Source: Eledone cirrhosa (taxonomy: Eukaryota). Taken from it: a DNA stretch of 64,000 nucleotides. Of the stretch, positions 10,458-53,000 are shown in pieces (position 1 is the stretch's first letter; the number at the start of each line of letters is the position of its first letter). A program made the translations under genes and the position numbers. Where the stretch lies: contig OZ024745.1 in the NCBI GenBank assembly GCA_964016885.1, forward strand, positions 558,001 through 622,000, given 5' to 3'. A model generated the notes under the pieces. That model made no database searches. It was not told where the DNA came from and saw only the letters and a program-made list of their open reading frames with translations.

Positions 10458-11559
10458 GAAGCCCTATTTTGTTTAGACAAACTTTTTTTTTCTTGTATTA
10501 TTTAAATAATGTCATCTTCAAATGCTGACATCTACACAAATATCAGATATAAAATATCAAATTCTGCTGAGTTCTGTAGATTCTCCATTGTTGTTGATGA
10601 GCTGCAGGTCAGCCTTCATCAAGCAGATCTACAAAGACATTCAAGCCATAACCATTCTAAGACTACATTATCCAATGTATCCTTCCTATTTTCAGACAGT
10701 AGAATATGGTTTGAGGGAATTCCATTGTTACTTCTATCAAGTCAAACAATTGTGTAGCTGCTTCTGTGTTGGTTTGATGTATTCCATGTTGTTATATTTA
10801 GAAGTATATATTAGTCTAGATGGAATTCAGCAGAGTTGGGTTCTGACATTTAAGCTGGGATTTGCCAACAAAGGAGTGAAGTTTAGAGTTAGAACTTTAA
10901 GCTTTTCAGAGCTATTGTGTTGTGTTTTTTAATGTTAAATAACATTTGAGTGAGCAGCTGAAATTGTTTTAGACATTTGTGATTATTTCATGGGAACGGT
11001 GGTGATATTTGTTTTTTATTTATTTTAAATATATTTTCCTACAGTCACGACCACCACAATGAACAACATAACCATCATCAGGTCCAATGTTTTACTTTTT
11101 GCCAGCCAATGTTGAATAAAACATAGATGGCAAATCAACAGTCATTAGAACATCAGATAGAATGCTTTACAGTAAAGGTTCTCAACAGGGGCATTTTGGA
11201 ACTCCAGGGGGTGTTTTGGAGCAAGGGGACATCAGGGGGGGGGGGGGCACTGTAAGGGTCTTTTATAAGCTATATTTGTATGTCTCTGAGACAGCATTTG
11301 AATGAGCATGCAAACAGCATAACTATGGTCTGACCGCAGCTGTAAGCAGGTGTGCAGGCGTGTCTAGAGATCCTAAAATGGAAAAACCCACAGTCAACTG
11401 GGTCAAGGACACTTTGAGTGAGCCGGTTAGAATCTTGTCTTTCCTTTACCGATAACAATCTATTTCATGTCTGAAATTATTGACTCAACTGTAACGAGTT
11501 AACACTACGTAGATCTATTTTATTCCCTATTGTATAAATAATATTACAAATACAAACAC

Positions 11560-12778
11560 AGAAGCGGGTAGCACACACATCTAGGACCACATACAACACA
11601 TAAGCAGGTAATACACACATCTAGGACCACATACAACAAATAAGCAGATAATACACACATCTAGGACCACATACAACACATAAGGAGGTAACACACACAT
11701 CTAGGACCACATACAACACAATCAGGTAATACATACATCTAGGACCACATACAACGCACAAGCAGGTAATACACACATCTAGGACTACATACAACACATA
11801 AGCAGGTAATACAAACATCTAGGACCACATACATCACATAAACAGGTAATACACACATCTAGGACCACATACAACACACAAGCAGGTAGTACACACATCT
11901 AGGACCACATACAACACATAAGCAGGTAATACAAACATCTAGGACCACATACATCACATAAACAGGTAATACACACATCTAGGACCACATACAACACAAT
12001 CAGGTAATACATACATCTAGGACCACATACAATGCACAAGCAGGTAATACACACATCTAGGACTACATACAACACATAAGCAGGTAATACAAACATCTAG
12101 GACCACATACAACACATAAACAGGTAATACACACATCTAGGACCACATACAACACAATCAGGTAATACACACATCTAGGACCACATACAACACATAAGCA
12201 GGTAATACACACATCTAGGACCACATACAACACAATCAGGTAATACATACATCTAGGACCACATACAACACAATCAGGTAATACACACATCTAGGACCAC
12301 ATACAACACAATCAGGTAATACACACATCTAGGACCACATACAACACAATCAGGTAATACATACATCTGGGACCACATACAACACACAAGCAGGTAATAC
12401 ACACATCTAGGACCACATACAACACAATCAGGTAATACATACATCTAGGACCACATACAACACATAAGCAGGTAATACACACATCTAGGACCACATACAA
12501 CACAATCAGGTAATACACACATCTAGGACCACATACAACACAATCAGGTAATACACACATCTAGGACCACATACAACACAATCAGGTAATACACACATCT
12601 AGGACCACATACAACACAATCAGGTAATACATACATCTGGGACCACATACAACACACAAGCAGGTAATACATACAGCTGGGACCACATGCAATACATAAG
12701 CAGGTAATACATACATCTAGGACTACATACAACACACAGGCAGGTAATATATACATCTAGGACTACATACAACACACA
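11560..12778. repeat. 37-39 bp minisatellite (ACACATCTAGGACCACATACAACACATAAGCAGGTAAT-like) inside the hAT element
   Basis: Direct reading, about 31 units. Confidence 0.95.
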
Positions 12779-21800: not shown

Positions 21801-24800
21801 CAGGGTATAGGGCTGATTTCTCTCTCTCAGTAGGATATAGGGCTGACTTGTCTCTCTCTCAGTAGGGTATAGGGCTGATTTCTCTCTCTCAGTAGGATAT
21901 AGGGCTGACTTCTCTCTCTCTCAGTAGGGTATAGGGCTGACTTGTCTCTCTCAGTAGGGTATAGGGCTGACTTCTCTCTCTCTCAGTAGGATATAGGGCT
22001 GACTTCTCTCTCTCTCAGTAGGGTATAGGGCTGACTTCTCTCTCTCTCAGTAGGGTATAGGGCTGACTTGTCTCTCTCAGTAGGGTATAGGGCTGACTTC
22101 TCTCTCTCTCAGTAGGGTATAGGGCTGACTTCTCTCTCTCTCAGTAGGGTATAGGGCTGACTTCTCTCTCTCTCAGTAGGGTATAGGGCTGACTTGTCTC
22201 TCTCAGCAGGGTATAGGGCTGATTTCTCTCTCTCAGTAGGATATAGGGCTGACTTCTCTCTCTCAGTAGGGTATAGGGCTGACTTCTCTCTCTCAGTAGG
22301 GTATAGGGCTGACTTCTCTCTCTCAGTAGGGTATAGGGCTGATTTCTCTCTCTCAGTAGGATATAGGGCTGACTTCTCTCTCTCTCAGTAGGGTATAGGG
22401 CTGACTTCTCTCTCTCTCAGTAGGGTATAGGGCTGACTTCTCTCTCTCTCAGTAGGGTATAGGGCTGACTTCTCTCTCTCTCAGTAGGGTATAGGGCTGA
22501 CTTGTCTCTCTCTCAGTAGGGTATAGGGCTGACTTCTCTCTCTCTCAGTAGGGTATAGGGCTGACTTCTCTCTCTCTCAGTAGGATATAGGGCTGACTTC
22601 TCTCTCTCTCTCAGTAGGGTATAGGGCTGACTTCTCTCTCTCTCAGTAGGATATAGGGCTGACTTCTCTCTCTCAGTAGGGTATAGGCCTGACTTGTCTC
22701 TCTCAGCAGGGTATAGGGCTGACTTCTCTCTCTCAGTAGGATATAGGGCTGATTTCTCTCTCTCAGTAGGGTATAGGACTGACTTGTCTCTCAGTAGGGT
22801 ATAGGACCGACTTGTCTCTCAGTAGGGTATAGGACCGACTTGTCTCTCAGTAGGGTATAGGGCTGACTTGTCTCTCTCAGTAGGATATAGGGCTGACTTC
22901 TCTCTCAGTAGGGTATAGGGCTGACTTCTCTCTCTCAGTAGGGTATAGGCCTGACTTGTCTCTCAGTAGGGTATAGGGCTGACTTGTCTCTCTCAGTAGG
23001 GTATAGGGCTGATTTGTCTCTCTCAGTAGGGTATAGGGCTGATTTGTCTCTCTCAGTAGGGTATAGGGCTGACTTGTCTCTCTCAGTAGGGTATAGGGCT
23101 GACTTGTCTCTCTCAGTAGGGTATAGGGCTGACTTCTCTCTCTCAGTAGGGTATAGGGCTGACTTCTCTCTCTCAGTAGGGTATAGGGCTGACTTCTCTA
23201 CTGAGAGAGAGAGAAGTCAGCCCTATACCCTACTGAGAGAGAGAAGTCAGCCCTATATCCTACTGAGAGAGAGAAGTCAGCCCTATATCCTACTGAGAGA
23301 GACAAGTCAGCCCTATACCCTACTGAGAGACAAGTCGGTCCTATACCCAACTGAGAGAGAGAAATCAGCCCTATATCATACTGAGAGAGAGAAGTCAGCC
23401 CTATACCCTACTGAGAGACAAGTCAGCCCTATACCCTACTGAGAGAGAGACAAGTCAGCCCTATACCCTACTGAGAGAGACAAGTCAGCCCTATATCCTA
23501 CTGAGAGAGAGAAGTCAGCCCTATACCCTACTGAGAGAGAGAGAAGTCAGCCCTATACCCTACTGAGAGAGAGAAGTCAGCCCTATATCCTACTGAGAGA
23601 GAGAAATCAGCCCTATACCCTACTGAGAGAGACAAGTCAGCCCTATACCCTACTGAGAGAGAGAAATCAGCCCTATACCCTACTGAGAGAGACAAGTTAG
23701 TCTCCCCTCTCCACACCACCAATGTTGAAAGGCAATGGCCGATACAGCTTGGCACCAGTGACATCACAACTAATTTCTTCAGCTGAGTAAACTGGAGCAA
23801 CGTGAACTAAAGTGTCTTGTTCAAGGACACAATGCTTCACCTGGTCTGAGAATTAAACTCACAACCTCACGACTGTAAGCCCAACCTCTAACCACTCATC
23901 CAAATCTGTGTGTAGATAAAAATGACAAATTATTTACCTTAGTATATATATAGTTCTTCATAGAATTATTGTTTTCAGTTTGTTTACTTGGCTACAAAAT
24001 GTTTGTACTCTGTATTGTTGAGAAGGGTCATGTCCTAATATTGTCAAATTGAATTCTATTTCCTCTAATTTGGGAGAGACCTGTCAGTGTCAGAATTCCA
24101 ATTTGAGCCAAGCTCCATCTTCTCACATCCACCATCATCTGGACAAACTGTTGACTAACTTCCACTAGCATTTCATTTTCTTCTTCTTCTTCTTCTCTTC
24201 TCCTCTGCCCTTTCCTCTACTAGGTAACTATAAACCTCCACTAATCTCAGTGTCTCTCTGTCAACAGTAAAAGGTCACCAATGGTTGATAGATGGGATGT
24301 ACAGGAAAATACAAAATTGAGTTCACAAGTATGTCACTTATAAAGTTGGCCTACAAACCTATTTGATGACTTCTCTCTCTCAGTAGGATATAGGGCTGAC
24401 TTCTCTCTCTCAGTAGGGTATAGGGCTGATTTCTCTCTCTCAGTAGGGTATAGGGCTGACTTCTCTCTCTCAGTAGGGTATAGGGCTGACTTCTCTCTCT
24501 TAGTAGGATATAGGGCTGACTTCTCTCTCTCAGTAGGGTATAGGGCTGACTTCTCTCTCTTAGTAGGATATAGGGCTGACTTCTCTCTCTCAGTAGGGTA
24601 TAGGGCTGACTTCTCTCTCTCAGTAGGGTATAGGGCTGATTTCTCTCTCTCAGTAGGGTATAGGGCTGACTTGTCTCTCTCAGTAGGGTATAGGGCTGAT
24701 TTCTCTCTCTCAGTAGGATATAGGGCTGACTTCTCTCTCTCAGTAGGGTATAGGGCTGACTTGTCTCTCTCAGTAGGGTATAGGGCTGATTTCTCTCTCT

Positions 24801-25889
24801 CAGTAGGATATAGGGCTGACTTCTCTCTCTCAGTAGGGTATAGGGTTGACTTGTCTCTCTCAGTAGGGTATAGGGCTGATTTCTCTCTCTCAGTAGGATA
24901 TAGGGCTGACTTCTCTCTCTCAGTAGGGTATAGGGCTGACTTCTCTCTCTCAGTAGGGTATAGGGCTGACTTGTCTCTCAGTAGGGTATAGGGCTGACTT
25001 GTCTCTCAGTAGGGTATAGGGCTGACTTGTCTCTCTCAGTAGGGTATAGGGCTGACTTGTCTCTCTCAGTAGGGTATAGGGCTGACTTCTCTCTCTCAGT
25101 AGGGTATAGGGCTGACTTCTCTACTGAGAGAGACAAGTCAGCCCTATATCCTACTGAGAGAGACAAGTCAGCCCTATACCCTACTGAGAGAGACAAGTCA
25201 GCCCTATACCCTACTGAGAGACAAGTCAGCCCTATATCCTACTGAGAGAGAGAAGTCAGCCCTATACCCTACTGAGAGAGAGAAATCAGCCCTATACCCT
25301 ACTGAGAGAGAGAAGTCAGCCCTATACCCTACTGAGAGAGAGAAGTCAGCCCTATACCCTACTGAGAGAGAGAAATCAGCCCTATACCCTACTGAGAGAG
25401 AGAAGTCAGCCCTATATCCTACTGAGAGAGAGAAATCAGCCCTATACCCTACTGAGAGAGAGAAGTCAGCCCTATATCCTACTGAGAGAGACAAGTCAGC
25501 CCTATATCCTACTGAGAGAGAGAAATCAGCCCTATACCCTACTGAGAGAGAGAAGTCAGCCCTATACCCTACTGAGAGAGAGAAATCAGCCCTATACCCT
25601 ACTGAGAGAGAGAAGTCAGCCCTATATCCTACTGAGAGAGAGAAGTCAGCCCTATACCCTACTGAGAGAGACAAGTCAGCCCTATATCCTACTGAGAGAG
25701 AGAAGTCAGCCCTATACCCTACTGAGAGAGAGAAATCAGCCCTATACCCTACTGAGAGAGAGACAAGTCAGCCCTATACCCTACTGAGAGAGAGAAATCA
25801 GCCCTATACCCTACTGAGAGAGAGAAGTCAGCCCTATACCCTACTGAGAGAGAGAAGTCAGCCCTATATCCTACTGAGAGAGAGAAGTC
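18877..25889. repeat. 28-32 bp satellite (CTACTGAGAGAGAGAAGTCAGCCCTATACC)n in five blocks of alternating orientation
   Basis: Forward 18877-20085, reverse 20311-23197, forward 23198-23700, reverse 24367-25120, forward 25121-25889. Confidence 0.96.
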
Positions 25890-26558
25890 ATCAAATAGGT
25901 TTGTAGGCCAACTTTATAAGTGACATACTTGTGAACTCAATTTTGTATTTTCCTGTACATCCCATCTATCAACCATTGGTGACCTTTTACTGTTGACAGA
26001 GAGACACTGAGATTAGTGGAGGTTTATAGTTACCTAGTAGAGGAAAGGGCAGAGGAGAAGAGAAGAAGAAGAAGAAGAAAATGAAATGCTAGTGGAAGTT
26101 AGTCAACAGTTTGTCCAGATGATGGTGGATGTGAGAAGATGGAGCTTGGCTCAAATTGGAATTCTGACACTGACAGGTCTCTCCCAAATTAGAGGAAATA
26201 GAATTCAATTTGACAATATTAGGACATGACCCTTCTCAACAATACAGAGTACAAACATTTTGTAGCCAAGTAAACAAACTGAAAACAATAATTCTATGAA
26301 GAACTATATATATACTAAGGTAAATAATTTGTCATTTTTATCTACACACAGATTTGGATGAGTGGTTAGAGGTTGGGCTTACAGTCGTGAGGTTGTGAGT
26401 TTAATTCTCAGACCAGGTGAAGCATTGTGTCCTTGAACAAGACACTTTAGTTCACGTTGCTCCAGTTTACTCAGCTGAAGAAATTAGTTGTGATGTCACT
26501 GGTGCCAAGCTGTATCGGCCATTGCCTTTCAACATTGGTGGTGTGGAGAGGGGAGACT
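23700..26558. repeat. Large inverted repeat (palindrome) centred near 25120
   Basis: 23700-24368 (SINE piece plus unique DNA) is the reverse complement of 25887-26558, with inverted satellite blocks between. Confidence 0.93.
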
Positions 26559-30054: not shown

Positions 30055-30174
30055 ACGAGTGTTTGACTCTAATGCACTCAAGTGTTTTTATCTTATATAT
30101 ATATATATAAATACACACACACATATATATATATATATAATATAAGATCAAAAGATGGTTAAAGGAGTTCAATA

Positions 30175-30245
30175 TATTTTATTATGCGCATTTCAAAAAC
30201 AAACATCATTAAACAATAATATTTGTGTTTTCATCAGATAAAATA
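30175..30245 (-). ncRNA. Type I hammerhead ribozyme (copy 1)
   Basis: Reverse complement of 36524-36594. Confidence 0.88.
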
Positions 30246-31472
30246 GGAGAACATGATATGAAGGCTAAAAAAACACTTGTTGATAGTGCAGTTTTAAATC
30301 AACATATGAAAAGTGGTTTTAGATTGATGTGTGATATTGGGAAAAATATTTTATTTAGAGAGGGGGGGAGAGAAAAGGATGAAAAGGGAAGGAGATGAGA
30401 GGGAGAGATGGGTGATAGAGAGAAAGAGATAGTTTTTATAACAGAGAGGAGATATATATTATATAGAGGGGTTGAAAACCGTTGGAAGATACTGTATAAA
30501 TTAAAAATTTTGAAAATTAACGAAGGGAGGATATGTGCGAGGAAAAAATATATTATATTTAGGGAGGGGTGGGGGTGGAAAGGATGAAAAAAAGGGGAGG
30601 AGATGAGAGTGAAGGTGGAAAGGGAGAGATGGGTGATAGAGAGAAAGAGATAGTTTTTATAACTGAGAAAAAGATATAATGTTTTAATATAGAGAGGTTG
30701 GGAACCGTTGGAAGATAATGTATAAATTAAAGGAATTTGAAAATTAACGAAGGGAAATTATGTATGGAGATAGAGAGAAAAAATAACGAAGGGAGATTAT
30801 GTATGGAGATAGAGAGAAAAAAATAATAATTGTGGGTGAATATTCAAAAGGAGAAATGTAGGAATCTTAAAATTAGCAAAGAGAAAATGTTTATGTATAG
30901 GATTTGAGAAAAATTTATATTGAATTCATATGTATTAATAATGAGTTTGTTGATGGGGAGAAAAAAAAAAAAAAAAAATAATAATAATAATAAATTAAGG
31001 ATGAAATTGAGATTAAAAAGATTTATGATAGAGAGAAAAAATAATAATGATTGCGGATGAATACTCAAAATGTCAAAAACAAATGTTATTGTTTTACGAA
31101 GAGATATAATGAGGGTGATGAGTAAACGGGTATTATAGAGTGTATAATGCCCTTTAAAGTAAGGTAGATGGGTATATTTTAAAGAATATATGAGTATATA
31201 TTAAAAAAATATATATAATAATAAATTAAGGATGAAATTGAGATTAAAAAGATTTATGATAGAGGGAAAAAAATAATAATGATTGCGGATGAATATTCAA
31301 AATGTCAAAAACAAATGTTATTGTTTTACGAGAAGATAGGATGAGGTAAATGAATAAACGAGTACTATAGAGTGTATAATGCCCTTTAAAGTAAGGTAGA
31401 TGGGTATATTTTAAAGAGGTGTATGTATATGTGCCTTTGAGAAAAGATTCTAAATTGATAAAGAATTGAATA

Positions 31473-33875
31473 TTAACTGTATACTTTGTGAAAAGTTCTA
31501 TGGAATTTATGAAGGCAGATGGAAAACAAATCCGAGCGTCTATTTATTATGGATTCTAGGTTAGAGATAATGGTAAATTTTTCATTTAGGCAGAGATTAC
31601 AGATTTTAGATAGAGAACTGTTCAAGTACGAGGATGCAGAAGAAATCTTTTTCCAAAAGATGTTATATTTAATGTTTTTGTCTTTTAAGGACCATATGAG
31701 TTCTGAGAGAGCAGTGTTAGTTCTTTTAAGTTTGTATTTGAAAGATGAATGATGATTATAGAGACGAGCTTTAAAAGAGGTGGAAGTGGAGCCAAAATAG
31801 GTGAAGGAGTTGGTGCTAGTTATAATTTTACATTCATAAATTAAGTTTTTATCGAGGCAATGGTTGTTGAGAGGACATTTATTTTTAATGCGGCAGTTGC
31901 AATTAGAGAGATTATTAATGAGTGATCTAGTGTTATCTATAGAAGGAATTGGATTGGAGAAGTTGTTTGCGATAGGAATAATAGGAATAATAGTTTCTTG
32001 ATTTAGAGTTGGATTATGAACATTTAGCGAAGTTGTGTTTGACGTTGTATTTGGGTTTACAGAAGTTAGCCTAGGGTTTACAATGACGTCAGGAGTACTA
32101 TTATTGTTATTATGAGATTCAATATTGGAAGGAAGAGATTTAGTATTTAATATTTTGTTGTTGTGTTTAGAAATGATGTTGGAAATATTGGAGGATGTAG
32201 AATACGAAAATTTAATGGTGTGTTTGTTAAATATTTTACTATAGATATGTGAGGGAGGGAAGCATTTATTTAAGGCACTAAAAAATAATTTAGGAATATT
32301 GTTATTAATAGAGATGGAGAAAGGAGCATTATACCAGATTATGTTTTTGTATCTAGGTCTTTTATTAAAATTATTGGAATGGTTATGATTAAATATTCTA
32401 CTGTAAGTTTTCCTAGAATTTGTTTCTTTATTATATTTGATTTTATCTGGATAGCCAGCTTTAGAAAGTGCGTTATTATAGTAATTGGCGTTAGCATCAA
32501 AGATGTTTTTATTAGAAGATATGTTAGATATTCTATTTCCAATATTATTAACTATAGCATTCTTGATATTGGTAGGATGGTTAGATTTAAAGTTAACATA
32601 ATTAAGATTCTCATTGTTTTTATGGTAAGGGTAATATAGGCCAGTGTCAAGATTAAGAGATACATCCAAGAAATTAGCTAGTTTGGTACTATTATCAAAT
32701 TCAATTTTTAGGTTATGTTGGTTAAAGAGATTACGTATATTGTTCTTAATAATATTAAGTTTAACTATATTGCAATTTAGGATAGTAAAGAGTCCATCGT
32801 CACGATAAATTCCACCGCGAAGTTGAGGAATTTTCCGACTCAAAGAGTTCAAAATGAAGATACCAATTAAATCAGTCAATTGGGATGAATCGGATGCTCC
32901 CATTGTGATGTCGAAGTTGTTAGAGGTATCGGCTCTGGTCCAATATTCGTTGTTGAACTCTAGGATGGTTTTACGTGCGGTGAGGATGATGTGAAGTTCA
33001 TCTGTGGTGATGTCAGAATATTTAAGTGCGAAAGATAGAGCATTATTGAGAAGTGAAGGCGAAATGGAGGAATAGTAGCTGGCAATATCGAATTGAATAA
33101 ATTTTAGTTTGTTTTTATTATCCAATTTGTTGAACCAGCCAATCACTTCAGAAGTACCAAACCATAAATTTAGGTTTAAAGAAGAGCAATTAGAACTAAC
33201 CTGTGGGATAATCCTATCCAAGATGGCTTTACTAACAACCCCCAGATCAGATTTAGAGGGGGCGATTAATCTAACAGGTAGTTCAGTGCGAAAATTGTTT
33301 TTGTGATCCTTGAGATTTATCCTCGGAGTTCTTGGGAGGAATGGTTCGGTCTTTTTTTCAATGCCAAGTTTTGACATAATCTCATAGGCTTCAAGGTTTA
33401 TGCATTCTAAATTTTCATGGTTGGTTTTACGATACTTTTTCCTAAGTTCCTTTAGGATAAGGTTGTTATAATTATCCTTGGAAATACCATATAGGTTATT
33501 GGTTTTGTCAGAGTGGACTAAAACATTTTTTGAGGAATTTAGGTTAGAGATTGTGTTCTTGAGATTTACAAGGTGCTCTTGTCCTTTGTAAGGGTATCTC
33601 TTGAATTTAAGATTTTTTATAATTTTAGTTAATTCTTCCTCGAATTGTGCTAGATTTTTGTTGGAAGGAGGATTTCGTCTGGAATTAAAAAGATGATCGA
33701 GGAAGTTGTGTTCTTTGGTATGAAAGTTCCCTTTTAGGCGCTGGTCATAGAAATAGGCTGTCCATCTAAGTCTTCTTACGAAGGAGTCAGTTTTTTCAAT
33801 AAGAAGTTTGGTGAATTCAGATTTACCAGGTATAGGAATGACTTTAGTAGAATTGGTTATGTTGTAATAATCCAT
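31473..33875 (-). CDS. Penelope-like RT-GIY-YIG polyprotein, intact (~800 aa from ATG 33875; ORF track extends to a TTG at 33935)
   Basis: FIQFDIASYYSSI, MGASDSS, IYRDDGL, FLDVSL; CNCR..CPL..C; LIYEC..YFGST..FKAR..HH; CNLCLNEK; differs from the + copy by one residue (V vs D). Confidence 0.92.
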   Translation of the reverse strand: MDYYNITNSTKVIPIPGKSEFTKLLIEKTDSFVRRLRWTAYFYDQRLKGNFHTKEHNFLDHLFNSRRNPPSNKNLAQFEEELTKIIKNLKFKRYPYKGQEHLVNLKNTISNLNSSKNVLVHSDKTNNLYGISKDNYNNLILKELRKKYRKTNHENLECINLEAYEIMSKLGIEKKTEPFLPRTPRINLKDHKNNFRTELPVRLIAPSKSDLGVVSKAILDRIIPQVSSNCSSLNLNLWFGTSEVIGWFNKLDNKNKLKFIQFDIASYYSSISPSLLNNALSFALKYSDITTDELHIILTARKTILEFNNEYWTRADTSNNFDITMGASDSSQLTDLIGIFILNSLSRKIPQLRGGIYRDDGLFTILNCNIVKLNIIKNNIRNLFNQHNLKIEFDNSTKLANFLDVSLNLDTGLYYPYHKNNENLNYVNFKSNHPTNIKNAIVNNIGNRISNISSNKNIFDANANYYNNALSKAGYPDKIKYNKETNSRKTYSRIFNHNHSNNFNKRPRYKNIIWYNAPFSISINNNIPKLFFSALNKCFPPSHIYSKIFNKHTIKFSYSTSSNISNIISKHNNKILNTKSLPSNIESHNNNNSTPDVIVNPRLTSVNPNTTSNTTSLNVHNPTLNQETIIPIIPIANNFSNPIPSIDNTRSLINNLSNCNCRIKNKCPLNNHCLDKNLIYECKIITSTNSFTYFGSTSTSFKARLYNHHSSFKYKLKRTNTALSELIWSLKDKNIKYNIFWKKISSASSYLNSSLSKICNLCLNEKFTIISNLESIINRRSDLFSICLHKFHRTFHKVYS

Positions 33876-33952
33876 GTTGTAGAAGAAGAGGTGAAGGACC
33901 ATCAAAAGGTATCCAATATGAGAGTAAGCGCTCAACCGTTAAGGAGCAAGTA

Positions 33953-35304
33953 AACTTCGCGGTGGAATTTATCGTGACGATGGACTCTTTACTATCCTAA
34001 ATTGCAATATAGTTAAACTTAATATTATTAAGAACAATATACGTAATCTCTTTAACCAACATAACCTAAAAATTGAATTTGATAATAGTACCAAACTAGC
34101 TAATTTCTTGGATGTATCTCTTAATCTTGACACTGGCCTATATTACCCTTACCATAAAAACAATGAGAATCTTAATTATGTTAACTTTAAATCTAACCAT
34201 CCTACCAATATCAAGAATGCTATAGTTAATAATATTGGAAATAGAATATCTAACATATCTTCTAATAAAAACATCTTTGATGCTAACGCCAATTACTATA
34301 ATAACGCACTTTCTAAAGCTGGCTATCCAGATAAAATCAAATATAATAAAGAAACAAATTCTAGGAAAACTTACAGTAGAATATTTAATCATAACCATTC
34401 CAATAATTTTAATAAAAGACCTAGATACAAAAACATAATCTGGTATAATGCTCCTTTCTCCATCTCTATTAATAACAATATTCCTAAATTATTTTTTAGT
34501 GCCTTAAATAAATGCTTCCCTCCCTCACATATCTATAGTAAAATATTTAACAAACACACCATTAAATTTTCGTATTCTACATCCTCCAATATTTCCAACA
34601 TCATTTCTAAACACAACAACAAAATATTAAATACTAAATCTCTTCCTTCCAATATTGAATCTCATAATAACAATAATAGTACTCCTGACGTCATTGTAAA
34701 CCCTAGGCTAACTTCTGTAAACCCAAATACAACGTCAAACACAACTTCGCTAAATGTTCATAATCCAACTCTAAATCAAGAAACTATTATTCCTATTATT
34801 CCTATCGCAAACAACTTCTCCAATCCAATTCCTTCTATAGATAACACTAGATCACTCATTAATAATCTCTCTAATTGCAACTGCCGCATTAAAAATAAAT
34901 GTCCTCTCAACAACCATTGCCTCGATAAAAACTTAATTTATGAATGTAAAATTATAACTAGCACCAACTCCTTCACCTATTTTGGCTCCACTTCCACCTC
35001 TTTTAAAGCTCGTCTCTATAATCATCATTCATCTTTCAAATACAAACTTAAAAGAACTAACACTGCTCTCTCAGAACTCATATGGTCCTTAAAAGACAAA
35101 AACATTAAATATAACATCTTTTGGAAAAAGATTTCTTCTGCATCCTCGTACTTGAACAGTTCTCTATCTAAAATCTGTAATCTCTGCCTAAATGAAAAAT
35201 TTACCATTATCTCTAACCTAGAATCCATAATAAATAGACGCTCGGATTTGTTTTCCATCTGCCTTCATAAATTCCATAGAACTTTTCACAAAGTATACAG
35301 TTAA
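33953..35304 (+). pseudogene. 5'-truncated copy of the same ORF, starting just before the YRDD motif
   Basis: Matches 37850-39201; begins at the inversion junction. Confidence 0.9.
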
Positions 35305-36523
35305 TATTCAATTCTTTATCAATTTAGAATCTTTTCTCAAAGGCACATATACATACACCTCTTTAAAATATACCCATCTACCTTACTTTAAAGGGCATTA
35401 TACACTCTATAGTACTCGTTTATTCATTTACCTCATCCTATCTTCTCGTAAAACAATAACATTTGTTTTTGACATTTTGAATATTCATCCGCAATCATTA
35501 TTATTTTTTTCCCTCTATCATAAATCTTTTTAATCTCAATTTCATCCTTAATTTATTATTATATATATTTTTTTAATATATACTCATATATTCTTTAAAA
35601 TATACCCATCTACCTTACTTTAAAGGGCATTATACACTCTATAATACCCGTTTACTCATCACCCTCATTATATCTCTTCGTAAAACAATAACATTTGTTT
35701 TTGACATTTTGAGTATTCATCCGCAATCATTATTATTTTTTCTCTCTATCATAAATCTTTTTAATCTCAATTTCATCCTTAATTTATTATTATTATTATT
35801 TTTTTTTTCTCCCCATCAACAAACTCATTATTAATACATATGAATTCAATATAAATTTTTCTCAAATCCTATACATAAACATTTTCTCTTTGCTAATTTT
35901 AAGATTCCTACATTTCTCCTTTTGAATATTCACCCACAATTATTATTTTTTTCTCTCTATCTCCATACATAATCTCCCTTCGTTATTTTTTCTCTCTATC
36001 TCCATACATAATTTCCCTTCGTTAATTTTCAAATTCCTTTAATTTATACATTATCTTCCAACGGTTCCCAACCTCTCTATATTAAAACATTATATCTTTT
36101 TCTCAGTTATAAAAACTATCTCTTTCTCTCTATCACCCATCTCTCCCTTTCCACCTTCACTCTCATCTCCTCCCCTTTTTTTCATCCTTTCCACCCCCAC
36201 CCCTCCCTAAATATAATATATTTTTTCCTCGCACATATCCTCCCTTCGTTAATTTTCAAAATTTTTAATTTATACAGTATCTTCCAACGGTTTTCAACCC
36301 CTCTATATAATATATATCTCCTCTCTGTTATAAAAACTATCTCTTTCTCTCTATCACCCATCTCTCCCTCTCATCTCCTTCCCTTTTCATCCTTTTCTCT
36401 CCCCCCCTCTCTAAATAAAATATTTTTCCCAATATCACACATCAATCTAAAACCACTTTTCATATGTTGATTTAAAACTGCACTATCAACAAGTGTTTTT
36501 TTAGCCTTCATATCATGTTCTCC

Positions 36524-36594
36524 TATTTTATCTGATGAAAACACAAATATTATTGTTTAATGATGTTTGTTTTTGAAATGCGCATAATAAAATA
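36524..36594 (+). ncRNA. Type I hammerhead ribozyme (copy 2)
   Basis: Stem I TATTTTAT/ATAAAATA; CTGATGA 36532-36538; long stem II AAACACAAATATTATT-GTTT-AATGATGTTTGTTTTT; GAAA 36575-36578; palindromic stem III TGCGCA; AUA cleavage triplet ending at 36586. Confidence 0.9.
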
Positions 36595-36798
36595 TATTGA
36601 ACTCCTTTAACCATCTTTTGATCTTATATTATGCATACTCCAGTCCCACAAACTGTAGAGTGCTTCTTATCCGATATCTGCATTGCTTTATTGTACTACA
36701 ATAAAACTCACCTCCTACATTTACTTGCTCCTTAACGGTTGAGCGCTTACTCTCATATTGGATACCTTTTGATGGTCCTTCACCTCTTCTTCTACAAC

Positions 36799-39201
36799 AT
36801 GGATTATTACAACATAACCAATTCTACTAAAGACATTCCTATACCTGGTAAATCTGAATTCACCAAACTTCTTATTGAAAAAACTGACTCCTTCGTAAGA
36901 AGACTTAGATGGACAGCCTATTTCTATGACCAGCGCCTAAAAGGGAACTTTCATACCAAAGAACACAACTTCCTCGATCATCTTTTTAATTCCAGACGAA
37001 ATCCTCCTTCCAACAAAAATCTAGCACAATTCGAGGAAGAATTAACTAAAATTATAAAAAATCTTAAATTCAAGAGATACCCTTACAAAGGACAAGAGCA
37101 CCTTGTAAATCTCAAGAACACAATCTCTAACCTAAATTCCTCAAAAAATGTTTTAGTCCACTCTGACAAAACCAATAACCTATATGGTATTTCCAAGGAT
37201 AATTATAACAACCTTATCCTAAAGGAACTTAGGAAAAAGTATCGTAAAACCAACCATGAAAATTTAGAATGCATAAACCTTGAAGCCTATGAGATTATGT
37301 CAAAACTTGGCATTGAAAAAAAGACCGAACCATTCCTCCCAAGAACTCCGAGGATAAATCTCAAGGATCACAAAAACAATTTTCGCACTGAACTACCTGT
37401 TAGATTAATCGCCCCCTCTAAATCTGATCTGGGGGTTGTTAGTAAAGCCATCTTGGATAGGATTATCCCACAGGTTAGTTCTAATTGCTCTTCTTTAAAC
37501 CTAAATTTATGGTTTGGTACTTCTGAAGTGATTGGCTGGTTCAACAAATTGGATAATAAAAACAAACTAAAATTTATTCAATTCGATATTGCCAGCTACT
37601 ATTCCTCCATTTCGCCTTCACTTCTCAATAATGCTCTATCTTTCGCACTTAAATATTCTGACATCACCACAGATGAACTTCACATCATCCTCACCGCACG
37701 TAAAACCATCCTAGAGTTCAACAACGAATATTGGACCAGAGCCGATACCTCTAACAACTTCGACATCACAATGGGAGCATCCGATTCATCCCAATTGACT
37801 GATTTAATTGGTATCTTCATTTTGAACTCTTTGAGTCGGAAAATTCCTCAACTTCGCGGTGGAATTTATCGTGACGATGGACTCTTTACTATCCTAAATT
37901 GCAATATAGTTAAACTTAATATTATTAAGAACAATATACGTAATCTCTTTAACCAACATAACCTAAAAATTGAATTTGATAATAGTACCAAACTAGCTAA
38001 TTTCTTGGATGTATCTCTTAATCTTGACACTGGCCTATATTACCCTTACCATAAAAACAATGAGAATCTTAATTATGTTAACTTTAAATCTAACCATCCT
38101 ACCAATATCAAGAATGCTATAGTTAATAATATTGGAAATAGAATATCTAACATATCTTCTAATAAAAACATCTTTGATGCTAACGCCAATTACTATAATA
38201 ACGCACTTTCTAAAGCTGGCTATCCAGATAAAATCAAATATAATAAAGAAACAAATTCTAGGAAAACTTACAGTAGAATATTTAATCATAACCATTCCAA
38301 TAATTTTAATAAAAGACCTAGATACAAAAACATAATCTGGTATAATGCTCCTTTCTCCATCTCTATTAATAACAATATTCCTAAATTATTTTTTAGTGCC
38401 TTAAATAAATGCTTCCCTCCCTCACATATCTATAGTAAAATATTTAACAAACACACCATTAAATTTTCGTATTCTACATCCTCCAATATTTCCAACATCA
38501 TTTCTAAACACAACAACAAAATATTAAATACTAAATCTCTTCCTTCCAATATTGAATCTCATAATAACAATAATAGTACTCCTGACGTCATTGTAAACCC
38601 TAGGCTAACTTCTGTAAACCCAAATACAACGTCAAACACAACTTCGCTAAATGTTCATAATCCAACTCTAAATCAAGAAACTATTATTCCTATTATTCCT
38701 ATCGCAAACAACTTCTCCAATCCAATTCCTTCTATAGATAACACTAGATCACTCATTAATAATCTCTCTAATTGCAACTGCCGCATTAAAAATAAATGTC
38801 CTCTCAACAACCATTGCCTCGATAAAAACTTAATTTATGAATGTAAAATTATAACTAGCACCAACTCCTTCACCTATTTTGGCTCCACTTCCACCTCTTT
38901 TAAAGCTCGTCTCTATAATCATCATTCATCTTTCAAATACAAACTTAAAAGAACTAACACTGCTCTCTCAGAACTCATATGGTCCTTAAAAGACAAAAAC
39001 ATTAAATATAACATCTTTTGGAAAAAGATTTCTTCTGCATCCTCGTACTTGAACAGTTCTCTATCTAAAATCTGTAATCTCTGCCTAAATGAAAAATTTA
39101 CCATTATCTCTAACCTAGAATCCATAATAAATAGACGCTCGGATTTGTTTTCCATCTGCCTTCATAAATTCCATAGAACTTTTCACAAAGTATACAGTTA
39201 A
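36799..39201 (+). CDS. Penelope-like RT-GIY-YIG polyprotein, intact (800 aa from ATG 36799)
   Basis: Same motifs as the minus copy; N-terminal STKDIPIP..LIEK..F.RRLRW.AYF resembles Naiad-type PLE N-termini as I recall them. Confidence 0.93.
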   Translation: MDYYNITNSTKDIPIPGKSEFTKLLIEKTDSFVRRLRWTAYFYDQRLKGNFHTKEHNFLDHLFNSRRNPPSNKNLAQFEEELTKIIKNLKFKRYPYKGQEHLVNLKNTISNLNSSKNVLVHSDKTNNLYGISKDNYNNLILKELRKKYRKTNHENLECINLEAYEIMSKLGIEKKTEPFLPRTPRINLKDHKNNFRTELPVRLIAPSKSDLGVVSKAILDRIIPQVSSNCSSLNLNLWFGTSEVIGWFNKLDNKNKLKFIQFDIASYYSSISPSLLNNALSFALKYSDITTDELHIILTARKTILEFNNEYWTRADTSNNFDITMGASDSSQLTDLIGIFILNSLSRKIPQLRGGIYRDDGLFTILNCNIVKLNIIKNNIRNLFNQHNLKIEFDNSTKLANFLDVSLNLDTGLYYPYHKNNENLNYVNFKSNHPTNIKNAIVNNIGNRISNISSNKNIFDANANYYNNALSKAGYPDKIKYNKETNSRKTYSRIFNHNHSNNFNKRPRYKNIIWYNAPFSISINNNIPKLFFSALNKCFPPSHIYSKIFNKHTIKFSYSTSSNISNIISKHNNKILNTKSLPSNIESHNNNNSTPDVIVNPRLTSVNPNTTSNTTSLNVHNPTLNQETIIPIIPIANNFSNPIPSIDNTRSLINNLSNCNCRIKNKCPLNNHCLDKNLIYECKIITSTNSFTYFGSTSTSFKARLYNHHSSFKYKLKRTNTALSELIWSLKDKNIKYNIFWKKISSASSYLNSSLSKICNLCLNEKFTIISNLESIINRRSDLFSICLHKFHRTFHKVYS

Positions 39202-39256
39202 TATTCAATTCTTTATCAATTTAGAATCTTTTCTCAAAGGCACATATACATACACC

Positions 39257-40320
39257 TCTTTAAAATATACCCATCTACCTTACTTTAAAGGGCATTATAC
39301 ACTCTATAGTACTCGTTTATTCATTTACCTCATCCTATCTTCTCGTAAAACAATAACATTTGTTTTTGACATTTTGAATATTCATCCGCAATCATTATTA
39401 TTTTTTTCCCTCTATCATAAATCTTTTTAATCTCAATTTCATCCTTAATTTATTATTATATATATTTTTTTAATATATACTCATATATTCTTTAAAATAT
39501 ACCCATCTACCTTACTTTAAAGGGCATTATACACTCTATAATACCCGTTTACTCATCACCCTCATTATATCTCTTCGTAAAACAATAACATTTGTTTTTG
39601 ACATTTTGAGTATTCATCCGCAATCATTATTATTTTTTCTCTCTATCATAAATCTTTTTAATCTCAATTTCATCCTTAATTTATTATTATTATTATTTTT
39701 TTTTTTTTCTCCCCATCAACAAACTCATTATTAATACATATGAATTCAATATAAATTTTTCTCAAATCCTATACATAAACATTTTCTCTTTGCTAATTTT
39801 AAGATTCCTACATTTCTCCTTTTGAATATTCACCCACAATTATTATTTTTTTCTCTCTATCTCCATACATAATCTCCCTTCGTTATTTTTTCTCTCTATC
39901 TCCATACATAATTTCCCTTCGTTAATTTTCAAATTCCTTTAATTTATACATTATCTTCCAACGGTTCCCAACCTCTCTATATTAAAACATTATATCTTTT
40001 TCTCAGTTATAAAAACTATCTCTTTCTCTCTATCACCCATCTCTCCCTTTCCACCTTCACTCTCATCTCCTCCCCTTTTTTTCATCCTTTCCACCCCCAC
40101 CCCTCCCTAAATATAATATATTTTTTCCTCGCACATATCCTCCCTTCGTTAATTTTCAAAATTTTTAATTTATACAGTATCTTCCAACGGTTTTCAACCC
40201 CTCTATATAATATATATCTCCTCTCTGTTATAAAAACTATCTCTTTCTCTCTATCACCCATCTCTCCCTCTCATCTCCTTCCCTTTTCATCCTTTTCTCT
40301 CCCCCCCTCTCTAAATAAAA
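39257..40320 (+). repeat. Internal duplications in the PLE 3' non-coding region: a ~200-bp pair (39257, 39489), a ~37-bp pair (~39845-39920) and a ~200-bp pair (~39914, 40141)
   Basis: Direct comparison; the same pattern is present in all three element copies. Confidence 0.85.
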
Positions 40321-40423
40321 TATTTTTCCCAATATCACACATCAATCTAAAACCACTTTTCATATGTTGATTTAAAACTGCACTATCAACAAGTGTTTTT
40401 TTAGCCTTCATATCATGTTCTCC

Positions 40424-40494
40424 TATTTTATCTGATGAAAACACAAATATTATTGTTTAATGATGTTTGTTTTTGAAATGCGCATAATAAAATA
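40424..40494 (+). ncRNA. Type I hammerhead ribozyme (copy 3)
   Basis: Identical to 36524-36594, offset 3900 bp. Confidence 0.9.
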
Positions 40495-40618
40495 TATTGA
40501 ACTCCTTTAACCATCTTTTGATCTTATATTATGCATACTCCAGTCCCACAAACTGTAGAGTGCTTCTTATCCGATATCTGCATTGCTTTATTGTACTACA
40601 ATAAAACTCACCTCCTAC

Positions 40619-40649
<31 letters not shown>

Positions 40650-46477: not shown

Positions 46478-49422
46478 GTATACTGACCACTACAAGATAC
46501 CAGTGGGTATAAGTTAACCAGGATTAATCCCACAGGTTTTCACATATACTGACCACTACAATATACCAGTCGGTATAAGTTAACCAGGATTAATTCCCAC
46601 AGGTTTTCACATATACTGACCACTACAACATACCAGTGGGTATAAGTTAACCAGGATTAATTCCCACAGGTTTTCACATATACTGACCACTACAGGATAC
46701 CAGTCGGTATAAGTTAACCAGGATTAATTCCCACAGGTTTTCACATATACTGACCACTACAATATACCAGTCGGTATAAGTTAACCAGGATTAATTCCCA
46801 CAGGTTTTCACATATACTGACCACTACAGGATACCAGTCGGTATAAGTTAACCAGGATTAATTCCCACAGGTTTTCACATATACTGACCACTACAAGATA
46901 CCAGTCGGTATAAGTTAACCAGGATTAATTCCCACAGGTTTTCACATATACTGACCACTACAGGATACCAGTCGGTATAAGTTAACCAGGATTAATTCCC
47001 ACAGGTTTTCACATATACTGACCACTACAAGATACCAGTGGGTATAAGTTAACCAGGTTTAATTCCCACAGGTTTTCACATATACTGACCACTACAAGAT
47101 ACCAGTCGGTATAAGTTAACCAGGTTTAATTCCCACAGGTTTTCATATATACTGACCACTACAAGATACCAGTCGGTATAAGTTAACCAGGATTAATCCC
47201 ACAGGTTTTCACATATACTGACCACTACAAGATACCAGTTGGTATAAGTTAACCAGGATTAATCCCACAGGTTTTCACATATATTGACCACTACAAGATA
47301 CCAGTCGGTATAAGTTAACCAGGATTAATTCCCACAGGTTTTCACATATACTGACCACTACAAGATACCAGTTGGTATTAGTTAACCAGGTTTAATTCCC
47401 ACAGGTTTTCACATATACTGACCACTACAAGATACCAGTCGGTATAAGTTAACCAGGTTTAATTCCCACAGGTTTTCAGATATACTGACCACTACAAGAT
47501 ACCAGTCGGTATAAGTTAACCAGGATTAATTCCCACAGGTTTTCACATATACTGACCACTACAAGATACCAGTCGGTATAAGTTAACCAGGATTAATTCC
47601 CACAGGTTTTCACATATACTGACCACTACAAGATACCAGTGGGTATAAGTTAACCAGGATTAATTCCCACAGGTTTCACATATACTGACCACTACAAGAT
47701 ACCAGTCGGTATAAGTTAACCAGGTTTAATTCCCACAGGTTTTCACATATACTGACCACTACAAGATACCAGTGGGAATAAGTTAACCAGGATTAATCCC
47801 ACAGGTTTTCACATATACTGACCACTACAATATACCAGTCGGTATAAGTTAACCAGGATTAATTCCCACAGGTTTTCACATATACTGACCACTACAACAT
47901 ACCAGTGGGTATAAGTTAACCAGGATTAATTCCCACAGGTTTTCACATATACTGACCACTACAAGATACCAGTGGGTATAAGTTAACCAGGATTAATTCC
48001 CACAGGTTTTCACATATACTGACCACTACAAGATACCAGTCGGTATAAGTTAACCAGGATTAATTCCCACAGGTTTTCACATATACTGACCACTACAGGA
48101 TACCAGTCGGTATAAGTTAACCAGGATTAATTCCCACAGGTTTTCACATACACTGACCACTACAAGATACCAGTCGGTATAAGTTAACCAGGTTTAATTC
48201 CCACAGGTTTACAGGTTTTCATATATACTGACCACTACAAGATACCAGTCGGTATAAGTTAACCAGGATTAATCCCACAGGTTTTCACATATACTGACCA
48301 CTACAAGATACCAGTTGGTATAAGTTAACCAGGATTAATCCCACAGGTTTTCACATATACTGACCACTACAAGATACGAGTTGGTATAAGTTAACCAGGA
48401 TTAATTCCCACAGGTTTTCACATATACTGACCACTACAAGATACGAGTTGGTATAAGTTAACCAGGATTAATTCCCACAGGTTTTCACATATACTGACCA
48501 CTACAAGATACCAGTTGGTATAAGTTAACCAGGATTAATCCCACAGGTTTTCACATATACTGACCACTACAAGATACCAGTGGGTATAAGTTAACCAGGT
48601 TTAATTCCCACAGGTTTTCACATATACTGACCACTACAATATACCAGTTGGTATAAGTTAACCAGGATTAATTCCCACAGGTTTTCACATATACTGACCA
48701 CTACAATATACCAGTCGGTATAAGTTAACCAGGATTAATCCCACAGGTTTTCACATATACTGACCACTACAATATACCAGTTGGTATAAGTTAACCAGGA
48801 TTAATCCCACAAGTTTTCACATATACTGACCACTACAAGATACCAGTGGGTATAAGTTAACCAGGATTAATCCCACAGGTTTTCACATATACTGACCACT
48901 ACAAGATACCAGTGGGTATAAGTTAACCAGGATTAATCCCACAGGTTTTCACATATACTGACCACTACAAGATACCAGTGGGTATAAGTTAACCAGGATT
49001 AATCCCACAGGTTTTCACATATACTGACCACTACAAGATACCAGTGGGTATAAGTTAACCAGGATTAATTCCCACAGGTTTTCACATATACTGACCACTA
49101 CAATATACCAGTTGGTATAAGTTAACCAGGATTAATCCCACAGGTTTTCACATATACTGACCACTACAATATACCAGTTGGTATAAGTTAACCAGGATTA
49201 ATCCCACAGGTTTTCACATATACTGACCACTACAATATACCAGTTGGTATAAGTTAACCAGGATTAATCCCACAGGTTTTCACATATACTGACCACTACA
49301 AGATACCAGTCGGTATAAGTTAACCAGGATTAATCCCACAGGTTTTCACATATACTGACCACTACAAGATACCAGTCGGTATAAGTTAACCAGGATTAAT
49401 CCCACAGGTTTTCACATATACT
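46478..49422. repeat. 66/67-bp satellite (ATATACTGACCACTACAAGATACCAGTCGGTATAAGTTAACCAGGATTAATTCCCACAGGTTTTCAC), ~44 units
   Basis: Direct reading. Confidence 0.97.
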
Positions 49423-50099: not shown

Positions 50100-53000
50100 A
50101 ACCATATGTATCAAGTTTAGAATAGGTACACTGTATCCCTGTATGTTGTAATACCATGTATATCTAGTTTAGAATAGGTACACTGTATCCCTGTATGTTG
50201 TAATACCATGTATATCTAGTTTAGAATAGGTACACTGTATCCCTGTATGTTGTAATACCATGTATATCTAGTTTAGAATAGGTACACTGTATCCCTGTAT
50301 GTCATAATACCATGTATATCTAGTTTAGAATAGGTACACTGTATCCCTGTATGTTGTAATACCATATATATCTAGTTTAGAATAGGTACACTGTATCCCT
50401 GTATGTTGTAATACCATGTATATCTAGTTTAGAATAGGTACACTGTATCCCTGTATGTTGTAATACCATATATATCTAGTTTAGAATAGGTACACTGTAT
50501 CCCTGTATGTTGTAATACCATGTATATCTAGTTTAGAATAGGTACACTGTATCCCTGTATGTCATAATACCATATATATCTAGTTTAGAATAGGCAAACT
50601 GTATCCCTGTATGTCATAATACCATGTATATCTAGTTTAGAATAGGTACACTGTATCCCTGTATGTCATAATACCATGTATATCAAGTTTAGAATAGGTA
50701 CACTGTATCCCTGTATGTCATAATACCATGTATATCAAGTTTAGAATAGGCACACTGTATCCCTGTATGTTGTAATACCATGTATATCAAGTTTAGAATA
50801 GGTACACTGTATCCCTGTATGTCATAATACCATGTATATCTAGTTTAGAATAGGTACACTGTATCCCTGTATGTTGCAATACCATGTATATCTAGTTTAG
50901 AATAGGTACACTGTATCTCTGTATGTTGTAATACCATGTATATCTAGTTTAGAATAGGCACACTGTATCCCTGTATGTTGTAATACCATGTATATCTAGT
51001 TTAGAATAGGTACACTGTATCCCTGTATGTTGTAATACCATGTATATCTAGTTTAGAATAGGTACACTGTATCTCTGTATGTTGTAATACCATGTATATC
51101 AAGTTTAGAATAGGTACACTGTATCCCTGTATGTCATAATACCATGTATATCTAGTTTAGAATAGGTACACTGTATCCCTGTATGTTGTAATACCATGTA
51201 TATCTAGGTTAGAATAGGTACACTGTATCCCTGTATGTCATAATACCATGTATATCTAGTTTAGAATAGGTACACTGTATCTCTGTATGTTGTAATACCA
51301 TGTATATCTAGTTTAGAATAGGTACACTGTATCCCTGTATGTTGTGATACCATGTATATCTAGTTTAGAATAGGTACACTGTATCCCTGTATGTTGTAAT
51401 ACCATGTATATCTAGTTTAGAATAGGTACACTGTATCCCTGTATGTCATAATACCATGTATATCTAGTTTAGAATAGGTACACAGTATCCCTATATGTCA
51501 TAATACCATATATATCTAGTTTAGAATAGGTACACTGTATCCCTGTATGTTGTAAGACCATGCATATCTAGTTTAGAATAGGTACACTGTATCCCTGTAT
51601 GTTGTAAGACCATGTATATCTAGTTTAGAATAGGTACACTGTATCCCTGTATGTTCTAATACCATATACATCTAGTTTAGAATAGGTACACTGTATACCT
51701 GTATGTTGTAATACCATGTATATCAAGTTTAGAATAGGTACACTGTATCCCTGTATGTCATAATACCATGAATATCTAGTTTAGAATAGGTACACTGTAT
51801 CTCTGTATGTTGTAATACCATGTATATATAGTTTAGAATAGGTACACTGTATCCCTGTATGTTGTGATACCATGTATATCTAGTTTAGAATAGGTACACT
51901 GTATCCCTGTATGTTGTAATACCATGTATATCTAGTTTGGAATAAGTACACTGTATCTCTGTATGTTGTAAGACAATATATATCTAGTTTAGAATAGGTA
52001 CACTGTATCCCTGTATGTTGTGATACCATGTATATCTAGTTTAGAATAGGTACACTGTATCCCTGTATGTTGTAATACCATGTATATCTAGTTTAAAATA
52101 GGTACAATGTATCCCTGTATGTTGTAATACCATGTATATCTAGTTTAAAATAGGTACACTGTATCCCTGTATGTTGTAATACCATGTATATCTAGTTTAG
52201 AATAGGTACACAGTATCCCTGTATGTTGTAAGACCATGTATATCTAGTTTAGAATAGGTACACTGTATCCCTGTATGTCATAATACCATGTATATCTAGT
52301 TTAGAATAGGTACACTGTATCCCTGTATGTTGTAATACCATATATATCTAGTTTACAAAAGGTACACTGTATCCCTGTATATTGTAATACCATGTATATC
52401 TAGTTTACAATAGGTACACTGTATCCCTGTATGTCATAATACCATGTATATCTAGTTTAGAATAGGTACACTGTATCCCTGTATGTCATAATACCATGTA
52501 TATCAAGTTTACAATAGGTATACTGTATCCCTGTATGTTGTAATACCATATATATCTAGTTTAGAATAGGTACACTGTATCCCTGTATGTTGTAATACAA
52601 TATATATCTAGTTTACAATAGGTACACTGTATCCCTGTATGTCATAATACCATGTATATCTAGTTTAGAATATGTACACTGTATTCCTGTATGTCATAAT
52701 ACCATGTATATCAAGTTTACAATAGGTATACTGTATCCCTGTATGTTGTAATACCATATATATCTAGTTTAGAATAGGTACACTGAATCCCTGTATGTTG
52801 TAATACCATGTATATCTAGTTTAAAATAGGTACATTGTATCCCTGTATGTTGTAATACCATGTATATCTAGTTTAGAATAGGCACACTGTATCCCTGTAT
52901 GTCATAATACCATGTATATCTAGTTTAGAATAGGTACACTGTATCCCTGTATGTTGTTAGACCATATATATCTAGTTTAGAATAGGTACACTGTATCCCT

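Follow-up and report, generated by a model that had tools for sequence, protein, structure and literature searches.

A Type I Hammerhead Motif, Predicted to Self-Cleave Mainly as a Dimer, in a Young Penelope-Like Element of Eledone cirrhosa

The Locus and the Carrying Element

The window, that is, the whole stretch of 64,000 nucleotides of Eledone cirrhosa DNA analyzed here (positions 558,001 to 622,000 of contig OZ024745.1), harbors a composite insertion, in which one inverted copy of a repeated element lies beside 1.7 tandem units of the same element. The unit comprises 3900 nt (36721–40620), including a 3' UTR of 1.2 kb, and (TA)n abuts both ends of the composite insertion; behind position 36720, loose ends in (TA)n were encountered in 22 and 20 contigs. 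The coordinates of all features are compiled in Table 1. The 232-nt repeat in the 3' UTR supplies part of the extra 1 kb by which the unit exceeds other Hydra-type elements. The surroundings of the element are largely satellites (1–2284, 5047–5745, 6245–10458, 11550–12776, 18877–25890, 46479–49422, and 50101–63981), among them a 35-nt repeat, G-rich 12/36-nt repeats (GC 0.61–0.64, GC skew 0.6–0.67), a 30-nt repeat present in both orientations, and a 67-nt repeat; the last 14 kb of the window are filled by a satellite of a 52-nt repeat.

Table 1. Features of the composite insertion and its hammerhead motifs (positions within the window).
Feature	Position	Strand	Remarks
Plus-strand array	33953..40620	+	5'-truncated unit from unit position 1130, then full unit 36721–40620; ends in (TA)n
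Inverted copy	30132..33954	-	head to head with the plus array; unit 1 to ~3812; without the 88-nt tail; ends in (TA)n
ORF, 809 aa, intact	36772..39201	+	reverse transcriptase and C-terminal GIY-YIG-like endonuclease, by homologue alignment and motifs
ORF copy, 809 aa	31473..33902	-	in the inverted copy; one residue differs, V for D at residue 21
88-nt "tail"	36633..36720	+	between the alternative 3' ends at unit 3812 and 3900; again at 40533–40620; not in the inverted copy
232-nt tandem repeat, 1.9 copies, 93% alike	39257..39702 (+), 35360..35805 (+), 30972..31417 (-)		in the 3' UTR
Hammerhead copy 1	36524..36594	+	predicted cut after 36586
Copy 1, stem I 5' strand	36524..36531	+	
Copy 1, CUGAUGA	36532..36538	+	
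Copy 1, stem II hairpin	36539..36574	+	
Copy 1, GAA	36575..36577	+	
Copy 1, stem III palindrome	36578..36585	+	AUGCGCAU
Copy 1, A17	36586	+	
Copy 1, stem I 3' strand	36587..36594	+	
Hammerhead copy 2	40424..40494	+	identical to copy 1; predicted cut after 40486, 134 nt before the element 3' end
Hammerhead copy 3	30175..30245	-	identical to copy 1; predicted cut between 30183 and 30182

The identity of the element is based on homologue alignment, atlas look-alikes, and motif reading. A database search with the ORF returned 70 homologues at 31–40% identity, and with 18 homologues (34–40% identity) the ORF aligns end to end, the motifs SDKT, CNCRIKNKC, CNLCLNE, and CLH falling into the same columns; in addition, RWT (at the RWK position), FDIASYY, and YRDDG can be read from its sequence. 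A Pfam search of the 809-aa ORF gave no domain match. According to Craig et al. (2021, PMC8557442), the marks described for the Hydra clade are a reverse transcriptase joined to a C-terminal GIY-YIG endonuclease, DKT instead of DKG, a CxCX5C linker, CxxC and CxH around a conserved E and N, and insertion at (TA)n. In the window element, DKT, the CxCX5C linker, CxxC and CxH around E and N, and the (TA)n insertion are all found, while its unit of 3900 nt lies above the size of under 3 kb given for the clade. By its sequence, the element is thus assigned to the Penelope-like retroelements (PLEs) of the Hydra clade.

A low-complexity insert rich in N, about 75 aa long (ORF residues ~590–680), separates the reverse transcriptase part from the endonuclease linker and is lacking in 16 of the 18 homologues with which the ORF was aligned. 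One cephalopod homologue carries the name GATA zinc-finger protein at NCBI, probably because of low-complexity sequence of this kind.

The Hammerhead Motif

The motif of 71 nt occurs in three letter-identical copies in the window, two on the plus and one on the minus strand of the window, and in each case on the sense strand of the element. Copy 1, read directly from the sequence, consists of UAUUUUAU, followed by CUGAUGA, a 36-nt hairpin, GAA, the palindrome AUGCGCAU, a single A, and finally AUAAAAUA. Between motif and ATG lie 177 nt, and at the other end of the element the predicted cut site (after unit position 3766) is found 134 nt before the 3' end. The positions expected of a type I core, C3 to A9 (CUGAUGA), G12-A13-A14, A15.1-U16.1, and A17 (not G), are present in 3/3 copies, which, being parts of one repeated element and 100% identical within the window, do not count as independent observations. 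The cleavage triplet is A-U-A, from which a cut after A36586 is predicted.

Stem I is formed by 8 pairs, all of them A-U, and its helix is open. Stem II extends over 16 positions with 15 pairs, two of which are G-U, one C-U mismatch, and a GUUU loop; A9 runs directly into an A-U pair (10.1-11.1) of this stem. Stem III is a perfect 8-nt palindrome, whose ends are A15.1 and U16.1. Loops of the kind that provides tertiary contacts in fast hammerheads are not visible in the motif. The original prediction, made from the same DNA, had described a complete core with the A-U-A triplet, an 8-bp stem I, a 16-position stem II with one mismatch and two G-U pairs, and copies at 36524 (+), 40424 (+), and 30175–30245 (-), all of which is borne out letter for letter by the sequence, the core also by the pattern and descriptor searches described below. 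It had placed this type I hammerhead in the pseudo-LTR of a PLE as well, in agreement with the position now found within the terminal repeat of the PLE. Its reading of stem III as "only UGCGCA" was correct with regard to a palindromic mini stem but too short in extent, as the closing A15.1 and U16.1 lengthen it to the 8-nt palindrome.

An exact pattern search for the 55-nt core stretch located 36532–36586 (+), 40432–40486 (+), and 30183–30237 (-), where 100 shuffles gave an expectation of 0. A helix-checking descriptor, applied to both strands of the window, returned the same three sites and none other. Chance matches to this descriptor are rare: 6000 shuffles of the 3.9-kb unit that preserve dinucleotides gave one, and the count fell to 0/6000 when stems I and II had to comprise at least 5 bp each.

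Profile searches were less responsive. An Infernal search for known hammerheads, which had been proposed as a check on the original prediction, gave no Rfam hammerhead match at gathering score, and none at E ≤ 10 on 321 nt. In a control on the loci of 20 relatives, Rfam recovered 0/29 sense hammerheads, its sole matches there being two canonical antisense ones in locus L055; since it misses the relatives' hammerheads equally (29/29), its failure here says little. A covariance model of our own, R1, was built on 27 motifs from relatives with a 9-nt stem III (alignment A3), because differences in length made the part downstream of stem III unusable in the alignment of all 51 (A2). With R1, the window copies score 12.1 bits (E 0.75), stems II and III being skipped by the model, and are outscored by a spurious site in the window, 11060–11086, with 13.4 bits. 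The held-out relatives that were recovered score 14.0–42.2 bits, every one of them above the window copies.

Hammerheads in Related Elements

For comparison, 78 loci encoding proteins at 30–39% identity were collected in one scan of metagenome contigs. A sense-strand hammerhead was detected with our own descriptor in 59 of these 78 loci, situated just upstream of the ORF, just downstream, or on both sides; altogether, 79 sense matches stand against 3 antisense matches, and a shuffled set is expected to give 0.05. In thirteen loci, two sense copies, 2362–2847 nt apart, flank the ORF as in the window element. The matches represent 51 distinct motif sequences, in which the core is fixed and the stems vary. 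In the 27 motifs whose stem III measures 9 nt, 11 of 11 pairs in helices I and II have changed on both sides, a count which is partly circular, as the descriptor itself selects sequences that pair.

In two relatives (L064 and L071), stem I corresponds nearly letter for letter to that of the window motif. Other properties of the latter are scarce among the 51 distinct relatives' motifs: an A-U pair at 10.1-11.1 is present in three, and an 8-nt perfect palindrome as stem III in two. At its two ends (first/last letter), the stem II segment has T/T in 22, G/C in 19, G/T in 5, A/T in 3, and C/A in 2 of them. The stem II hairpin comprises 36 nt in the window motif versus 10–25 nt in the relatives, and the 15.2-16.2 pair is U-A versus C-G in 51/51. 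Judged from these sequence features, the window motif is at the edge of the range covered by its relatives' hammerheads.

Two further observations were made on the metagenome loci. In one of them, L055, two canonical type I hammerheads (2636–2682 and 2917–2963, minus strand; Rfam Hammerhead_1, 35.9 bits) are spaced by 281 nt and run antisense to the ORF of a Hydra-type PLE on a metagenome contig; the arrangement resembles a retrozyme-like tandem next to the element. Furthermore, six metagenome contigs of 2.5–3.0 kb (L091, L100, L055, L085, L105, and L056) show the same hammerhead near both of their ends, and terminal redundancy of this type is what assemblers yield for tandem or circular molecules.

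Folding of One Copy and of Two

The predicted behavior of the motif depends strongly on whether one or two copies take part. In the monomer, stem III is reduced to 2 bp and a GCGC loop, which destabilizes the structure by +2.9 kcal/mol; the canonical fold is calculated at −6.0 kcal/mol with stem III and at −8.9 kcal/mol without it, and the MFE is −10.2 kcal/mol. The folding z-score of −1.0 for the 71-nt motif gives no thermodynamic support by itself, and in a context of 171 nt, stem I is absent from the MFE structure (z = 0.07). For two copies, the MFE amounts to −32.5 kcal/mol, compared with 2 × −10.2 kcal/mol for the monomers, and the predicted fold is that of a double hammerhead with an intermolecular stem III of 8 bp and swapped stem I strands. 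This is consistent with the earlier suggestion that the palindromic stem III favors a fold of two copies, and it agrees with the account given for PLE hammerheads in PMC4209133, according to which a tiny palindromic helix III should prevent the activity of a single copy and permit that of a pair.

In the MFE structure of the 171-nt context, the place of stem I is taken by a helix between GCAUAAUA (36582–36589), which runs across the cut site, and UAUUAUGC (36627–36634), which lies at the alternative 3' end (unit 3812); with z = 0.07, this pairing could be due to chance.

Copies in the Genome and Their Ends

The 241 nt around the motif were searched in the 3.0-Gb genome of the same species, yielding 227 candidates, 44 of them scored matches with 95–100% identity. 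The 13 invariant core positions are all intact in 38 of 39 other genomic copies, the remaining one having a changed G8; the loss of core conservation, which the original prediction had named as an outcome that would speak against it, is hence not what the family displays. The variants that do occur in the family fall into loop II or keep the pairing, such as an A>G exchange in stem I that gives G-U, or U-A to U-G in stem II. Counted over the 39 other copies, 7 of 71 columns vary in the motif and 20 of 170 in the flank, numbers that have no power to reveal constraint within the family, as the copies are too alike to separate constraint from youth.

How young the family is can be seen from the first 300 nt of the unit (36721–37020 in the window; loci L109–L138), for which 40/40 scored matches, among 516 candidates, are 100% identical. 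By contig depth, which is a rough measure, the 5' part of the ORF is far scarcer than the pLTR end. The identity over 300 nt, together with the depth, points to a very recent burst that left many 5'-truncated copies.

At their 3' ends, the DNA copies terminate at unit 3900 or, in inverted partners, at about 3812, i.e., 134 or 46 nt past the predicted cut, and the 88 nt in between behave like the "tail" of PLEs. At the 5' side, 57 loci of the same genome supplied 50 distinct ends, and 0/50 lie within 10 nt of the predicted cut. Two of the 50 (L124 and L130), as well as the inverted copy of the window, begin at unit 1, directly after the 3' end position 3900. A third end at unit 1–3 was rejected as an artefact, as the tandem partner at that locus (L020) had fallen under the identity filter. 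Partial tandem arrays are common, 11 of 30 loci having at least 1.5 kb of upstream unit. The ends of the genomic copies show that reverse transcription used a template extending beyond the cut site. They argue against a linear RNA reaching from hammerhead to hammerhead as the template that is copied directly, both because the 3' ends lie beyond the cut and because none of the 5' ends falls within 10 nt of it.

Some details of the copy ends deserve mention in their own right. In four loci (L109, L114, L125, and L010), the 5' ends of inverted partners are found at unit 3778–3789, that is, 11–22 nt past the predicted cut; these ends were placed by HSP limits, and a stricter script retained two of the four. 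Many insertions are mirror pairs (L014, L015, L029, L030, L009, L025, and L137/L138), in which an inverted and a forward copy are truncated nearly alike, for example, at unit 3604/3611, 3641/3641, 3440/3445, and 3212/3212. As a rule, the inverted arm of such a pair extends to unit 3812, and its forward arm to 3900.

Proposed Function and Alternative Readings

We consider it highly probable that the 71-nt motif represents a sense-strand type I hammerhead of a young multi-copy PLE of the Hydra clade, predicted to self-cleave mainly as a double hammerhead held together by AUGCGCAU. Two copies, residing on one tandem transcript or on two transcripts, would pair via stem III and swap their stem I strands. 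Dimer-dependent cleavage after A36586 and A40486 is the predicted mechanism with the best support, and on the minus strand the cut would fall between 30183 and 30182. Such cleavage may serve to trim the element RNA out of read-through transcripts, and it would create a 5'-OH terminus at a distance of 185 nt upstream of the start codon. The arithmetic of the original prediction holds in this respect: the interval 36587–40486 measures exactly 3900 nt and includes the whole ORF, 36772–39201.

The behavior of another PLE, the anole element studied in vitro by Frangieh et al. (2024, PMC11167929), offers a comparison for the fate of such transcripts. As reported there, mutants of the hammerhead were without effect on insertion, no RNA-seq reads ended at the cut site, and unprocessed RNA was the dominant substrate in vitro; reverse transcription is initiated internally at two sites, which explains the tail.

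Against this background, the foremost alternative is that the motif was inherited from a hammerhead-bearing ancestor and no longer cleaves to any useful extent, persisting either as a structure read by the protein of the element, e.g., for RNA binding or for placing the starts of reverse transcription just downstream, or as a neutral passenger. The weak, all-A-U stem I, which drops out of the MFE structure in the 171-nt context, would be in line with such a relic, as would the atypical stem II and 15.2-16.2 pair and a model score that is the lowest of the family. Both DNA 3' ends, 46 and 134 nt downstream of the cut, fit the internal initiation described for the anole PLE, where insertion was left unchanged by hammerhead mutants, and minimal PLE hammerheads are described as being of low activity in vitro (PMC4209133). 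On the other hand, the 13 invariant core positions are intact in all but one of the 39 other copies, and the same core recurs in the 51 distinct motifs of the relatives despite their changed stems; a core that stays fixed while the stems change is hard to explain unless selection acts on this catalytic core. The perfect palindrome, moreover, gives a stable predicted fold as a double hammerhead. On balance, the reading as an inherited structure appears unlikely.

A second alternative retains cleavage and adds ligation to it. Two hammerheads would excise the 3900-nt RNA 36587–40486, and its ligation would furnish a protein-coding circle of 3.9 kb as the template of reverse transcription, which, starting at unit 3900 or 3812 and proceeding round the circle, would generate copies of more than one unit as well as copies of exactly one. 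The position of the 3' ends downstream of the cut is what lends this possibility its appeal, since a cleaved template must then have been rejoined or have been multimeric. The partial tandem arrays in 11 of 30 loci can be accommodated as well, and one full turn would yield copies starting at unit 1, such as those at L124 and L130 and the inverted copy of the window; the hypothesis as such is already in print (PMC4209133). The same DNA structures would, however, arise from read-through transcripts of tandem DNA copies, and a transcription start at unit 1 equally accounts for the three 5' ends found there. Known circles of retrozymes are reportedly small non-coding RNAs and not 3.9-kb coding ones, which likewise weighs against a circular template in the present case. 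Unprocessed RNA was the dominant substrate of the one PLE examined in vitro (PMC11167929). A circle is therefore regarded as quite improbable. If it did exist, it would unite the ends past the cut site, the arrays above one unit, and the copies that begin exactly at unit 1, and the dozens of letter-identical copies would make the element a natural system for catching it.

Finally, it can hardly be maintained that AT-rich repeat DNA matches the hammerhead consensus here by chance, for in spite of the missing Rfam match, the non-significant folding z-scores, and the model E of 0.75, a single one of 6000 shuffled units gives any match, the motif occupies the sense strand and the same place as in 59/78 relatives, and its stem I is common to L064 and L071.

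The predicted self-cleaving hammerhead stays the preferred reading. For studying the role of PLE hammerheads, the family is uncommonly well suited, combining an intact ORF, identical copies, and two sharp 3' ends. The only in-vitro transposition study found the PLE ribozyme dispensable (PMC11167929); here, the perfect palindrome offers a clear prediction of how monomer and dimer should differ.

Comparison with Known Systems

Hammerheads in the terminal repeats of PLEs, their dependence on dimers, and the idea of a circular template were published in 2014 by Cervera and de la Peña (PMC4209133), and hammerheads in the Hydra clade in 2021 (PMC8557442). The motifs described in the former work resemble the one in the window in many ways: they reside in the pLTR, are of type I, possess a helix II larger than usual and a tiny, palindromic helix III, and are arranged both in tandem, at a distance of about one unit, and as closely spaced inverted pairs. 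According to the same source, single motifs were inactive in vitro and dimers were cleaved weakly. Their helix II comprises 6–8 bp, that of the window motif being twice as long, and, unlike the hammerheads described there, the window motif enters an A-U pair straight after A9.

Similar relations hold for the hammerheads listed for the Hydra clade (PMC8557442). Like the window motif, these occupy the sense strand close to the 3' end and have a CUGAUGA...GAA core; their stem III comes near to a palindrome, and most of them have A as H17. The listed examples have a stem II of 3–7 bp, in contrast to 15 pairs in a 36-nt hairpin here, and a stem III of 3–4 bp with a loop of 1–3 nt, starting as AC...GU, where the window motif has AUGCGCAU. 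The families described there are under 3 kb in size with an ORF of about 700 aa, whereas the present unit of 3.9 kb encodes 809 aa including the N-rich insert of ~75 aa. This comparison draws on the published descriptions, and other listed Hydra elements may match the one in the window more closely.

The predicted dimer is reminiscent of the double hammerheads of the newt satellite and of avocado sunblotch viroid (Forster et al. 1988, as cited in PMC4209133), in which stem III is likewise extended between two copies, both of which contribute to each active site. Those systems are small non-coding RNAs for which cleavage was shown, while the fold considered here is a predicted one, with copies that are separated by 3.9 kb or belong to different transcripts. 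Animal retrozymes, as presented in a bioRxiv preprint (10.64898/2026.07.22.740005), contain tandem repeats with type I hammerheads that are linked to the terminal repeats of PLEs, and a circular RNA has been proposed for them. Retrozymes are short, non-autonomous, and non-coding; the unit in the window, in contrast, is autonomous and encodes an intact ORF of 809 aa, which places it outside a class defined by non-coding units.

The motif as such is a well-preserved but ordinary example of the known PLE hammerheads. What is new is a family, namely a young, intact 3.9-kb element of the Hydra type, the hammerhead of which is distinguished from those of its relatives by an extreme stem II and a U-A pair at 15.2-16.2.
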